Of a stretch of 64,000 nt of DNA, positions 30,705 to 35,700 are shown piece after piece. Location of the stretch: NCBI GenBank assembly GCA_963668175.1, contig OY764159.1, forward strand, positions 2,112,001-2,176,000, read 5' to 3'. The position numbers were made by a program, and so were the translations under genes. The stretch's first letter is position 1; every line of letters starts with the position of its first letter. Below the pieces are notes generated by a model. It saw only the letters and a program-made list of their open reading frames with translations. It was not told the DNA's origin and did not search any database. This DNA comes from Syntrophales bacterium. Lineage in GTDB: Bacteria; Desulfobacterota; Syntrophia; Syntrophales; PHBD01.

Positions 30705-30813
30705 AATTCCTGGGAAAGCGTCCCTGACAAGGGGACAGGTCCCCCGCAGGGGGGAAAGTCCCCCGCATGGGGGACGATATCCTCAGAATTTTGTCAAAAT
30801 TCTGACTACGGAG
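30705..30813 (+). repeat. Hairpin block (2x TCCCCC-N4-GGGGGA plus TCAGAATTTTGTCAAAATTCTGA palindrome), copy 1
   Basis: Homologous block at 32953-33099. Confidence 0.9.
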
Positions 30814-30920
30814 CGGCCGATATGGGGCGGATCGTTTCTTTGTTAAAGATGCAGACAAAAAGGACGTTGCGGCACAGTATCTCAAAGACACCATATGCAA
30901 TCTGCGAAAGGCGATAAACA

Positions 30921-31496
30921 ATGACTTCTAAATTGAGGCGGCTGCTTGCATGGAAAAATCGAATTTTTAAGGGTTTCACGCTCTGGCCGACCATCGTGAT
31001 GCTGTTGTATTTCCTGCAATGGTGGGTATTATTTTATTGCCAAGATGACGTTATCCAATTTTTTTTATTCATTATATTGGTGTTCTTATTTCCGGCAGTC
31101 TGTTTTATTTGTGCACTGGTGTTGCTCGGAAGAAAAAAACCGAAGTCGTCTTTATCCTTACTTACCCCGGCATTGCTTGTGGTCTTTATGTTTCCTCTGG
31201 GGAGTAATCCTATCAAAGATATTTTCTACGATTCACGCCAATATGTAGAATTCCAAATCCAGAAAAGATTCTATTTCCCGGAGATGAACGACCCCGATAA
31301 GCTGCCCCCATACAAAGAATGGCTTATCAAAGGGCATCCTAATATCTCTAAGTATACAATTGTTTACGATTTAAATGAATCCCTGGATGAGAGAGAAAAA
31401 AGGAAAAAAGCCGAATTGCATGACCCAAAATACTGGGGTTACCGCATAACGAGAGTCGGTCGGCATTTCTATATGCTGCATGAATATTACCATTGA
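30921..31496 (+). CDS. Membrane protein, putative immunity protein for the downstream effector
   Basis: Three TM segments plus soluble C-terminal part; shares V.FQ...Y, Y.+.YD and G.HFY motifs with 41668-42243. Confidence 0.65.
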   Translation: MTSKLRRLLAWKNRIFKGFTLWPTIVMLLYFLQWWVLFYCQDDVIQFFLFIILVFLFPAVCFICALVLLGRKKPKSSLSLLTPALLVVFMFPLGSNPIKDIFYDSRQYVEFQIQKRFYFPEMNDPDKLPPYKEWLIKGHPNISKYTIVYDLNESLDEREKRKKAELHDPKYWGYRITRVGRHFYMLHEYYH

Positions 31497-31521
31497 AGTT
31501 ATTTAAAAGGAGGGCTGGAAG

Positions 31522-32892
31522 ATGGGACGATACGGGGCGGATCATTTCTTTGTTAAAGAAAACGGTAATAATGTCGCTGCAAAGTATCTCAAAGACACAA
31601 ATGGAAACTATATTATGGACGGTTCAACCGGGCGGCCGTATGTCGTCCCAGCCGATTTTAATCTGGACGCAGTGATTGCAAAATATAAACCTCCTTATTG
31701 GCAGTCGCTTGAACCTATCGATATTGCAACGCGCCTGGAAACGTATGTAAAATTGTTATCGAATTTTAGAAGCGGTCGGCCGGACGACTTGCAGACAGCC
31801 TATAATGGAAAGGTTGGAGCCAACTGGGTCGAGGACTTTCGGCCGGCAGCAAACTATGTGTTCGGTGCGGCGTGCTCCGCGGCAGGTTTAACCTTGCATG
31901 AATGCATGGCTGGCGGGGGAGTGTATAACCTTAAAAAAGCCCTTTGGGATAAAAACCCCGATATTGATCCCTCCGGGATATTTGGAAATAATCCGGCCAA
32001 TGTTCGACATATCAAACAGGGCTATCTGAGCCAGTTTGATCGAAATGCGCCACAACCGACTCCGTTTGATGTTAAGTTCACCGATTCCGGCAAAACAGCC
32101 ATCGTGACGGAAAACGGCAAGACATCCGTGTATAAGGCAGTTACGGGAAAGTCAAATACGACCTGGAAATATGTTCCGGTGGAGGGGGGCGGCATCGATG
32201 CGGCGGTAGATGCCGGGATCTATACGGTCCAACGCGGCAATGTCCTTGGCGATATCGCAGCCAAATTTCATACCACCGTTCAACAAATCATGGAGGCGAA
32301 TCCCGATATCAAGAATCCGGATTCGATCCGCCCCGGACAGCGAATCGTATTGCCGAAAAACGACCCCTCCGGCCCCGCCGACAACAAGAAGGACCCCGAT
32401 CCCGACCGGCAGGGCGCGACAGACCGGGGAGGCGACAACGACCGGCAATCCCGGAACATCTCCCATGATGACGGATTTACAGTGATCGCCTCAAGCGGCG
32501 GCCCGGATGTTAACGAAAACACAAGTGCTGCCGCTCCTGCCGCTGACGCGCCGGCCGGCTTTTCCGCCGATCCGTTGCGTCATGCGCTGGACGCGCTGGG
32601 GGTGAAGCCCCGCGATGTGCAATTCACCCCGGCGGCGGACTACGGGAATATAAAACCGGACTCCTTCGATATGGTGGATAAGGGCACATCCGAAAAGATA
32701 GGCTCTTGTTTGATGACTCCCGACGGCGGCGAGATGACCGCGGGCGACAGGAAGGTCGTGATGGACCGGATAAGCGGCAACGACATTCACCTGCAAACGT
32801 ACGCCAAAAACGACGACGGAGAATATGAACTCGTTGGGACGACGCGAATCGGCGACAACGACGGGGTAACGGTGACAAGGCCGTTTGCATAA
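31522..32892 (+). CDS. Putative effector 1: Ntox44-like N-terminus, LysM domain, shared C-terminal domain
   Basis: AANYVFGAA..AAG...GGG.YN...FGNNP.....I..GY; LysM YTVQRGNVLGDIAAKFHTTVQQIMEANPDIKNPDSIRPGQRIVLP. Confidence 0.75.
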   Translation: MGRYGADHFFVKENGNNVAAKYLKDTNGNYIMDGSTGRPYVVPADFNLDAVIAKYKPPYWQSLEPIDIATRLETYVKLLSNFRSGRPDDLQTAYNGKVGANWVEDFRPAANYVFGAACSAAGLTLHECMAGGGVYNLKKALWDKNPDIDPSGIFGNNPANVRHIKQGYLSQFDRNAPQPTPFDVKFTDSGKTAIVTENGKTSVYKAVTGKSNTTWKYVPVEGGGIDAAVDAGIYTVQRGNVLGDIAAKFHTTVQQIMEANPDIKNPDSIRPGQRIVLPKNDPSGPADNKKDPDPDRQGATDRGGDNDRQSRNISHDDGFTVIASSGGPDVNENTSAAAPAADAPAGFSADPLRHALDALGVKPRDVQFTPAADYGNIKPDSFDMVDKGTSEKIGSCLMTPDGGEMTAGDRKVVMDRISGNDIHLQTYAKNDDGEYELVGTTRIGDNDGVTVTRPFA

Positions 32893-33815: not shown

Positions 33816-33978
33816 GGCAAATTCACCAAGCACACGCTGATCATGGAGGAATGTTATGGTATCGCATTATAAGAATCCGGGAATCAAGTGCGGACGATCA
33901 AGGAAAGAAAGGGGCTGTGAGTGCCCGGGTGGCGGCTCTCGTTCCGGCGGATGGCCTCGGTCGCAATTCGGGAAGACG

Positions 33979-34554
33979 ATGCTGCGGATCACGATCCTGG
34001 TCATGCTCCTCCTTTTCACGCCGCAGGTCCTCATGGCCGACGACATTGCGGATGGGTATGACGAAAACACGATCCGCCCGTCGGACATACCGGCCGACGC
34101 CCCGCGGTTTGAAGATTATCCGGCAAAGCTTTATACCGGGCGCAATGCGGTGCCCGATCTCAAAAGCCACCCGAGGTCGAGGATGTATCGGACGCGGCTC
34201 AAAGAATGGTCGCGCGAGAAACCGAATTTCGCCGGGCGCTTCATCTTGGCCACTTGGGGCTGTGGAACCGATTGCACACAGATAGCCATCATCGACGCGA
34301 AAACGGGGCGCATTTTTCATCCGCCCGGTGCAACTTCCAATAGTGCCGTTAATGTGCACGATGCTCTGTTTCAACCCGGCAAGAGTATCTGGTACGGCTC
34401 CGGCGCTATCTGGTATCGGCTGGACAGCAGGCTTTTGGTTTTGATCGGCGGGCCTGAAGATAGCGAAAGAGGAATCTGGTATTTTTTATGGGAGAAGGAT
34501 CGCCTGGTTAAGTTGCGTTTCATACCGAAACCCTTCCACTGGAAAAATCCTTAA
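33979..34554 (+). CDS. Secreted putative immunity protein, paralog 2
   Basis: Tandem paralog lying directly upstream of effector 2. Confidence 0.75.
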   Translation: MLRITILVMLLLFTPQVLMADDIADGYDENTIRPSDIPADAPRFEDYPAKLYTGRNAVPDLKSHPRSRMYRTRLKEWSREKPNFAGRFILATWGCGTDCTQIAIIDAKTGRIFHPPGATSNSAVNVHDALFQPGKSIWYGSGAIWYRLDSRLLVLIGGPEDSERGIWYFLWEKDRLVKLRFIPKPFHWKNP

Positions 34555-34593
34555 CCCAAATTAACTGGACAATGTTAATCATGGAGGAATGTT

Positions 34594-35700
34594 ATGGCTT
34601 CGCATTACAATGATCCGGGAATCAAATACGGACACTCAAGGGAAAAAGGGGCTGTCGACGCCGATGTCGCGGAGAAAGTCAAACAGAAAATCGTCACCCA
34701 GGCCAGAGCCGCGCAGCGTCAGGGCGTCCCCATCACGCAAGACGATATCGCCAGGTTAGTGGCCTATGCTGATCTGGAATCAGGGTTCAATCCCGACGCG
34801 GCCAATAAGGACGAATCCCCATCCGGTGTGTTTCAAATTGCGGATGAGACCGCTAAAGACTTCTATAGTCGATTAAACGGTAAATCTTTGATCAACGGTT
34901 ACCAAGTTAAGGGCAATTACGAAGACTACAAGCGATTCGATCCCGATTCGAACATCGCCGTAGGTATCGGTGTCTACCTCGACAAGAAAAGGAAGGCGAA
35001 GTCCGACGATGTCAATAAAATATATAAACGTTGGAATCCAGGAGCCACACCGGCGGAGCAAAAGGCGCTACGGAAACTGTATGAAAAATACAAAAGCATG
35101 AAACTTTCCCTCGATGATTCCGGGAGCGACGCCGACAAAGTCGCCGAGGCGGCGGAGCGGGATTCCGGGCGGACAGCCCCGGCCGGGCAACCGGACGATA
35201 CGTATTCAACCGAAGACAGGAAGAGAAAAGACCTCGCTGCGGGAGACGACGCCGAAGCTGAGACGGCGCGAAGAGGCGACGATTCGGGCGAACGAGAGGC
35301 CGACGATTCCACGAACAATCAGGACGGCGCTTTCAAGGCTGCCGCGAACGGTTCCTCCCTCGGCATACCCGAAGCGCCATGGCGGCACGCGCTGGATGTG
35401 CTGGGCGTGAAGTTCGGCGATGTGCAATTAACCCCGGCGGAGGCGGACGAAGAGAACGAGACACCGGACTCTTTCGACATCAGAGATAACGACACAACGG
35501 AAAAAATCGGCTCTTATGCGGGAACACCCACCGGCTGCGAAATGACCGTGGGCGACAGGAAGGTCGTGATGGACCGGATAAGCGGCAACGACATTCATCT
35601 GCAAACATATGCGAAAAACGACGATGGAGATTTTGAACTCGTTGGGACGACAAGAATCGGCGACAACGACGGGGTCACGGTAAGAAGGACGTTTGTATAA
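34594..35700 (+). CDS. Putative effector 2: lytic transglycosylase/lysozyme-like N-terminus plus shared C-terminal domain
   Basis: LESGFNPDAAN...SPSGVFQI...FDPDSNIAVG..YL; no signal peptide. Confidence 0.8.
   Translation: MASHYNDPGIKYGHSREKGAVDADVAEKVKQKIVTQARAAQRQGVPITQDDIARLVAYADLESGFNPDAANKDESPSGVFQIADETAKDFYSRLNGKSLINGYQVKGNYEDYKRFDPDSNIAVGIGVYLDKKRKAKSDDVNKIYKRWNPGATPAEQKALRKLYEKYKSMKLSLDDSGSDADKVAEAAERDSGRTAPAGQPDDTYSTEDRKRKDLAAGDDAEAETARRGDDSGEREADDSTNNQDGAFKAAANGSSLGIPEAPWRHALDVLGVKFGDVQLTPAEADEENETPDSFDIRDNDTTEKIGSYAGTPTGCEMTVGDRKVVMDRISGNDIHLQTYAKNDDGDFELVGTTRIGDNDGVTVRRTFV

Follow-up and report, generated by a model that had tools for sequence, protein, structure and literature searches.

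Truncated effector 5' ends upstream of immunity genes in a Syntrophales toxin island are probably scars of module duplication or effector loss

Why should the broken-off beginning of a toxin gene stand in front of an immunity gene, and do so more than once in the same island? The question is raised by a stretch of 64,000 nucleotides (hereafter the window) from a Syntrophales bacterium (GenBank assembly GCA_963668175.1, contig OY764159.1, positions 2,112,001 to 2,176,000), in which three operon-like modules lie on the plus strand between 30.5 and 41.1 kb. Module 1 reads D4, D3a, stub1, I1 and E1; module 2 reads D3b, stub2a, I2a, stub2b, I2b and E2; and module 3 reads a D4 copy, I3 and E3, where E denotes effector genes, I candidate immunity genes, D3 a hairpin leader, D4 a promoter-like repeat and the stubs truncated copies of effector 5' ends. 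At 2.797-2.821 Mb of the single 4.57-Mb contig lies another locus (hereafter the second locus), with six more effectors that have the same C-terminal domain (tblastn) and two more stubs, before I1'' and Ic. The homologies, the common junctions, a mosaic pattern of divergence and a gutted effector in a relative were all observed directly, and we consider that the stubs are probably non-functional remnants, or scars, of effector 5' ends left behind by duplication or effector loss.

That the stubs are copies of effector starts was established by comparing every effector start (-40 to +160) with the two loci in a blastn search. Stub1 (30815-30891) matches the start of E1 (31525-31598) at 79% identity over 77 nucleotides (nt; E 1e-13) and the start of the paralogous E1' in the second locus at 93% over 60 nt; in a four-way alignment it is 84% identical to the E1' allele and 82% to the neighbouring E1. 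Read in the E1 frame it gives GRYGADRFFVKDADKKDVAAQYLKDT, corresponding to codons 2-27, and it has lost both the ATG and the ribosome-binding site (RBS) of the effector start. The start of E2 is matched by stub2a (33113-33184) with 80.6% identity across 72 nt (E 3.6e-13) and by stub2b (33840-33918) with 86% across 79 nt (E 9e-21). Compared with E2, both have one extra nucleotide inserted at about codon 17, after which the shifted frame is open into I2a and I2b. Stub2b has also kept the RBS of E2: the 19-mer TCATGGAGGAATGTTATGG, which carries the RBS context, is exact at 33841-33859 and at 34579-34597, before E2. In a Smith-Waterman local-alignment control, none of 300 shuffles matched the observed score for stub1 or stub2a. 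A preliminary description of this DNA had taken 30815-30895 for a diverged start of effector 1 and 33114-33190 and 33856-33930 for frameshifted starts of effector 2, the second with the same RBS context, and all of this is borne out. It had also placed a stub before each immunity-like gene, which is true of three of the four in the window (I1, I2a and I2b, not I3) and of two of the six in the second locus (I1'' and Ic), leaving five of the ten in the genome without one. For the starts of E3, Eb, Ed, Ee and Ef the blastn search gave no match at E <= 0.01; in local alignment those of Ed and Ee were borderline (1/300 shuffles each) and those of E3, Eb and Ef were null against 300 shuffles. A weaker trace that had been suspected near 39250 ('PGIRC') dissolved on inspection, the match to stub2b being 23 nt long (z 3.8, reached by 2/300 shuffles) and the score against the E2 5' end falling under the shuffle mean (reached by 262/300).

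The second locus has stubs of the same kind. Its stretch L001 reads I1', stub, I1'', E1', as a tandem duplication would give, and here the stub has retained RBS and ATG alike and matches the E1' start at 93.5% identity. The junction between stub and I1-type gene, at which effector position ~+88 is joined to position ~-27 of I1, is identical in the window and in L001, and because it recurs in two paralogous loci it must have formed once. A 50-codon stub of Ec (L001 9843-9992; 72% amino-acid identity) stands before an intact Ic-Ec pair and is itself preceded by a decayed 3' fragment, the last ~20 codons, of an older immunity gene. Three genes are split by frameshifts, namely I1'' (L001 5285-5862, within a run of nine A), Eb (L001 8189-9355) and Ef (L002 11877-13205), and these may be pseudogenes, phase-variable genes or homopolymer assembly errors.

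It could be asked whether the whole pattern is chance similarity or an artefact of assembling a repetitive region, and split genes of the second locus, one of them in a homopolymer run, could indeed be assembly errors. However, the blastn E-values of 1e-13 to 6e-42 and the shuffle control speak against chance, and the same junctions are seen again in the second locus, as in independent proteins and contigs from metagenomes. Moreover, the copies differ by 6-20%, so an assembler would neither collapse nor invent the repeats. We therefore give this explanation almost no credence.

How might such stubs have arisen? The island would consist of immunity-first toxin operons, in which a promoter is followed by the immunity gene and then by the effector gene. 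By one route, a segment reaching from just 5' of the immunity gene to ~25-55 codons into the effector would be duplicated in tandem. By another, the effector would lose its body, either through deletion or because an incoming immunity-effector module took its place, possibly with the common C-terminal coding region as anchor. The older immunity gene would be kept, giving the order immunity gene, effector stub, immunity gene, live effector, in which the stub and the live effector start would form direct repeats around an immunity gene. Given such repeats, ordinary homologous recombination could add or remove units, and a likely effect of the stubs is unequal crossing-over with the live effector start, in keeping with the tandem I2 units. 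The order of these events is what we infer from the sequences, as are the array's selective value and the route of export considered below.

Relatives in metagenomes bear on this history. In contigs from two runs, an E2 start (+74, +134) is joined to sequence just upstream of an I1-type gene, and an E1 start (+76) is joined into an I2-type gene. Because stub type and following immunity type are mismatched in these relatives, a stub is best seen as the remnant of the upstream module's effector. Such an origin accounts both for the mismatched pairs and for metagenome contig L004, where an immunity gene is followed by an effector cut down to ~100 nt of its 5' end and ~190 nt of its 3' end, out of frame, and then by an I1-type gene that has no stub. 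One contig steps back 739 nt, a single unit, and a second passes over 1455 nt, roughly two units. All of the joints in these contigs serve as leads only, being fragmentary and from other organisms, with some short sides (28-38 nt). P0024 and P0025, the two nearest metagenomic I2 homologues listed, both carry a stub-derived N-terminal extension, and the stub/I2 junction thus predates strain divergence. P0025 is recorded on a contig of 3349 nt, the same length as that of the E2 homologue P0010. A third I2 homologue, P0027, is without the extension, and more distant homologues start at the signal peptide.

The clearest case of repetition is module 2, where units 33095-33940 and 33835-34680 align over their full length with a period of 739-742 nt. 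The layout of stub, immunity gene, stub, immunity gene and full effector in the preliminary description is thus a tandem unit, homologous end to end. The identity of these units is uneven. In the stub segment it is 78-82%, and stub2a and stub2b themselves are 78% identical, with a ratio of nonsynonymous to synonymous divergence (dN/dS) of ~0.5 over 24 codons, next to a dS of 0.15-0.18 in flanking I2. Between the E2-type stub and the I2 ATG, ~55 nt (33186-33239 versus 33925-33978) are 98-100% identical, whereas their neighbours are 6-22% diverged, which points to recent gene conversion across this tract or to constraint on a 5' element. The first 125 codons of I2a and I2b are 92.5% identical (dS 0.15), a patch of 25 codons only 67% (dN 0.35, dS 0.87), and beyond it dS returns to 0.18. 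In the I1' and I1'' units of L001, likewise, the 3' third of the immunity gene has 35-58% identity, against 92-98% in the flanks.

The preliminary description proposed that the effector 5' end is a recombination handle for stacking immunity alleles. In this view it would be kept as a homology arm, through which alleles from the DNA of kin, or further copies, are added by recombination with the live effector start. The two tandem stub-I2 units are what this proposal expects, as are the contigs that step back or skip ahead by whole units, and in L001 a stub very close to the E1' start flanks immunity parts that have diverged widely, so that conserved arms enclose a variable core. Stub1 is also at least as near to E1' (84%; 93% over 60 nt) as to the adjacent E1 (82%; 79%), and stub2a is nearer to the metagenomic allele P0010 (83% of 18 amino acids) than to E2 (78%). 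Yet there is no signal of selection on the stub sequence. Stub divergence is about equal to, or above, that at adjacent synonymous sites, and judged from these alignments stub decay looks near-neutral. Stub1 has neither start nor RBS, half of the immunity genes do without a stub, the relatives pair E2 stubs with I1 and E1 stubs with I2, and the window stubs, 72-79 nt at ~80% identity, are poor RecA substrates. Of the original claim, then, one part that stands is that the stubs are truly diverged effector 5' copies; that they serve as a handle is, given their near-neutral divergence, a doubtful though not far-fetched reading. Integron-like or recombinase-driven cassettes were also considered and rejected, no integrase being found with Pfam among the 44 window open reading frames (ORFs) scanned, a set that does not cover every small ORF. 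What recurs between units is none other than the effector start, not an attC-type site.

Several observations weigh against a history of simple scarring. The mosaic identity profile of the units misfits a single duplication followed by even divergence, and gene conversion or allele import must therefore be added to the duplication account. Stub1 and stub2a are preceded by a D3 hairpin leader and not by an immunity gene, which plain duplication does not predict, and the leader is fused near the start codon of both alike. The evidence for copy-number variation rests on the fragmentary metagenome joints, and none of 60 relatives carries the effector family. In addition, the frame from the stub into I2 is open in all four known copies (I2a, I2b, P0024 and P0025), and the sole indel between the 2a and 2b extensions is of 3 nt, which hints at some constraint on the extension. 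Finally, both E1-type stubs bear an upstream ORF (uORF) that stops 3 nt 5' of the I1 start and could be functional. In the window this uORF (30822-30917) has 31 codons in a frame that differs from that of E1, and lies behind a GGAG; its second-locus homologue has 34 codons and the same stop.

The last two points raise the possibility that a stub is a donor of translation initiation, supplying the RBS and start of an effector to the immunity gene, either through an in-frame extension (I2a, I2b) or by termination and reinitiation (I1, I1''). The exact 19-nt context of stub2b, with its ATG in frame with I2b, would suit such a role, as would the open frames and the uORFs that end at the same distance from the I1 and I1'' starts in two loci. 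Nevertheless, a 41-residue extension before a signal peptide would be unusual, and I2 homologues in other taxa start at the signal peptide. I1' and I3 manage without a stub, the ORF of the Ec stub stops ~60 nt 5' of Ic, the extension has a dN/dS of ~0.5 over few codons, and the window uORF uses another frame and another ATG than the second-locus copy. We hold this explanation to be improbable. Some functional role for the stubs, as translation donor or as handle taken together, is a minority prospect, though by no means a remote one.

If the stubs are scars, what is it that allows modules to be exchanged? E1, E2 and E3 all end in the same domain of ~110 amino acids, encoded at 32569-32868, 35377-35676 and 40767-41066, respectively; eight paralogues share it, with 43 invariant columns, and it is joined to alternative toxin domains. 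E1 (31522-32892) has an N-terminal domain with a weak Ntox44 match, a LysM domain (1.9e-14) and a linker before the conserved domain (Pfam). E2 (34594-35700) has an SLT lytic transglycosylase domain (Pfam, 2.4e-07) and an acidic linker, E3 (39897-41093) an SLT domain (2.5e-09), and a metagenome homologue an NlpC/P60 domain (PF00877). As judged by these matches, the N-terminal domains target the cell wall and differ among members. With the toxin N-terminal and the conserved part C-terminal, the usual polarity of polymorphic toxins is reversed. The C-terminal coding regions of the paralogues have 73-90% nucleotide identity, with a longest exact run of 19-60 nt per pair, and their similarity does not track the N-terminal toxin type, which makes this region a plausible homologous anchor for module replacement. 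Indeed, the C-terminus of E2 is nearest to that of E1' (90%) and not to that of the other SLT effector, so modules have been reshuffled in this region.

The effector family is very rare. Among 5.8 billion clusters, 22 proteins match the C-terminal domain, and a hidden Markov model search found 15 cluster representatives among 1.84 billion, every one a close relative. The domain was found in none of 60 related genomes searched, at no locus in a scan of a species-representative genome collection, and in a scan of metagenome contigs on two short contigs only. In the C-terminal region Pfam gave no domain at E <= 0.01 and NCBIfam no family, and a sequence profile search of the PDB gave a single match (E 0.67). 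An AlphaFold model of the domain shows a helix and an eight-strand beta-meander (pLDDT 70.4), for which Foldseek found nothing in the PDB at E <= 0.001; the best VIA-align hit (Z 7.0) was a generic beta-meander in the common range, and a search of the ESM Atlas gave no usable match. Word searches of the literature found no account of this domain, or of 5' effector stubs upstream of immunity genes, which is not proof that none exists.

The domain probably serves export or delivery. Genes for TssC and a PAAR protein lie at 0.17 and 0.157 Mb of the genome, respectively, and the toxin loci at 2.14 and 2.80 Mb. Hcp and VgrG were not found in the genome with PF05638 and PF05954, nor was a phage-sheath gene with the Pfam models used, and VirB4 (PF03135) had no match in this 100%-complete genome; VirD4 was not searched for.

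Are the genes behind the stubs truly immunity genes? I1 (30921-31496), a membrane protein of 191 amino acids with paralogues I1' and I1'' in the second locus, is the candidate immunity protein for E1 and belongs to no Pfam or NCBIfam family; NCBIfam has no family for any immunity gene of the locus. I2a (33240-33815) and I2b (33979-34554) are secreted paralogues, also of 191 amino acids, the signal peptide of I2a beginning at M43 of the ORF that starts at 33114. Their family, which has no Pfam family, comprises secreted proteins of ~190 amino acids (269 matches) that start at the signal peptide, and a scan of genome contigs found it at 61 loci, in single copy at 60 of them. Among 57 ORFs neighbouring I2-family genes at 17 loci, no SLT domain matched at E <= 1e-4.

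A structural model ties I2b to E2. The complex of E2 residues 1-185 with mature I2b reached an ipSAE of 0.75, a level that 116 of 157 solved complexes but just 2 of 215 mismatched pairs attain; the best of three controls stood at 0.00. The runs agreed in at least 77% of contacts, with a partner pLDDT of at least 85. In the model the WGCGTDC loop of I2b sits on the SLT cleft of E2, including the catalytic Glu62 of its 'LES' motif, so that the loop that is invariant in the I2 family (WGCG-x-x-C) is modelled in the active site. We take this loop to resemble the disulfide-bonded inhibitory loop of Ivy-type lysozyme/transglycosylase inhibitors. The model supports binding of E2 by I2b as cognate immunity that contacts the toxin domain, and the genes behind the stubs are plausibly immunity genes. 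Residues 166, 169, 172 and 182-184 of the predicted interface fall inside the variable 25-codon patch. The two I2 paralogues thus differ in their predicted effector-binding surface, and a plausible gain from the array is broader protection against effector variants of kin.

By analogy, the process we propose would follow the same logic as the type VI secretion (T6SS) arrays in Vibrio cholerae and the orphan modules of Rhs and contact-dependent growth inhibition (CDI) systems, with the polarity reversed. In V. cholerae, according to two published accounts, the effector is displaced by an incoming module and the old immunity gene is kept, truncated effectors lie beside their immunity genes, orphan immunity protects against kin, and the proposed route combines homologous recombination in conserved flanks with an illegitimate junction (Kirchberger et al. 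2017, PMC5361080; Hussain et al. 2021, PMC8189183). The likeness lies in immunity genes kept with truncated effectors, as in I2a with stub2b, I1' with its stub, the decayed immunity gene with the Ec stub, and L004. The V. cholerae modules have the effector before the immunity gene, their arrays are extended on the 3' side of a T6SS cluster, and what they leave of effectors is 3' remnants (PMC5361080, PMC8189183), whereas here the immunity gene leads, it is the 5' ends of effectors that survive, and the common homology is the 3', C-terminal domain. Both toxin loci also lie ~2 Mb from the only TssC gene found, and neither stands beside a T6SS, VgrG or Hcp cluster.

With Rhs and CDI systems the island shares polymorphic toxins that are conserved at one end and variable at the other, as well as displaced modules beside a live gene and short homology for recombination. 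The preliminary description had called the layout a mirror image of their orphan modules, and this is apt because the conserved, recombination-prone part is here 3' (C-terminal) and the immunity gene upstream. Unlike in Rhs/CDI, the polarity is reversed and the stubs are pieces of the variable end, which is specific to each type, instead of the part conserved across the family; E1, E2 and E3 have no RHS, YD or haemagglutinin-repeat match in Pfam. A classical system may nonetheless lie close by: on the minus strand of locus L005 (contig 2072001-2092000, at 5500-19800), ~22 kb upstream of the window, a run of small ORFs, of which one weakly matches a YD-shell tip, comes after a gene for a 1111-amino-acid Rhs protein with RHS repeats and DUF6531; together they look like a classical Rhs locus with orphan modules.

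Another comparison is with the X-Tfe effectors and X-Tfi inhibitors of the bactericidal type IV secretion system (T4SS) of Xanthomonadales. X-Tfe proteins combine variable N-terminal toxins, including peptidoglycan hydrolases, with a conserved C-terminal recognition domain of ~100-120 amino acids, and the X-Tfi gene, whose product is a secreted or lipoprotein inhibitor, usually lies upstream. Pfam contains a model for that recognition domain (XVIPCD). The island resembles this system in its variable N-terminal toxin, conserved C-terminal domain and upstream immunity gene, but it differs in that no VirB4 was found in the genome, no Pfam domain (at E <= 0.01) or convincing fold match was found for the C-terminal region, and the family is confined to a handful of sequences. 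The Xanthomonadales system is the subject of PMC6759196, PMC8262851 and PMC10933484.

In a bolder reading, the loci represent an undescribed, reversed class of polymorphic toxins, in which the immunity gene leads, the toxin is N-terminal, and the C-terminus is a delivery domain of new fold restricted to this lineage. The effector 5' end would then have two uses, as a direct repeat through which immunity cassettes multiply and are exchanged, and as the donor of RBS, start codon and coupling ORF for each immunity gene added. We think this rather unlikely; if it were true, the stubs would be the working part of a self-expanding immunity array. On the favoured account, in which the stubs are scars, the array still matters. 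Retained immunity arrays are thought to decide which strains coexist, and their growth has so far been described for toxins whose conserved part is N-terminal and whose immunity gene lies downstream. The present loci suggest that effector displacement with retention of immunity is a general outcome of toxin-locus architecture, beyond T6SS, Rhs and CDI. They also offer material for experiment, namely an SLT effector with two diverged inhibitor paralogues that differ at the predicted interface, and a candidate new delivery domain.

The remaining elements of the island are mostly repeats. D4 (30550-30699, plus strand; repeat search, blastn) is an AT-rich promoter-like repeat ending with an RBS and ATGAAT, and its second copy (39043-39192; 96.6% identity over 146 nt, blastn) stands before I3 (39187-39891), a secreted protein of 234 amino acids without a significant stub. 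D3a (30711-30813), adjoining stub1, is a G/C-tract hairpin leader with 19-nt GGGGG/CCCCC units, a 23-nt palindrome and an ACGGAG, and D3b (32959-33099) is its copy between E1 and stub2a; they differ in the number of 19-nt units (two and four, respectively) and fold as RNA at -58.3 kcal/mol (z -3.1 versus shuffles) and -80 kcal/mol (z -4.3). Rfam gave no match at E <= 1 on the window from 28 to 44 kb. In this genome the full D3 element is confined to the toxin island, and three partial copies of 34-36 nt (contig positions ~2080976, 2082467 and 2087801, ~24-31 kb before the window) adjoin the run of small minus-strand ORFs downstream of the Rhs gene of L005.

Between modules 2 and 3, two overlapping minus-strand ORFs of 282 and 147 amino acids (36609-37897; ORF list) presumably encode an IS3-type transposase, a label given from their translations without a family search. 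A small helix-turn-helix-like gene follows both E2 (35798-36007) and E3 (41168-41536); the former has a weak NCBIfam match to a MADS1 helix-turn-helix protein (5.6e-05, below cut-off), no family matched the latter, and both may be regulators or mobile-element remnants. Downstream of E3, 41668-42243 encodes a membrane protein of 191 amino acids, the length of I1, to which it is weakly similar (25% identity, E 0.03), and an FRG-domain protein is encoded on the opposite strand at 42326-43237. Outside this genome, I2-family members occur widely, as secreted proteins encoded in single copy, among Betaproteobacteria, Acidobacteriota and further groups (loci L007-L067), and in L007 the gene lies among ankyrin, DUF2716 and SUKH-1 genes, in an array resembling an immunity island. 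Further upstream in the window, a low-GC stretch (2583-9663) has the look of a defence island, with genes for an 8xMP membrane protein, a metallophosphoesterase, an ORC/CDC6-like ATPase (2e-47) and a D12 adenine methyltransferase.

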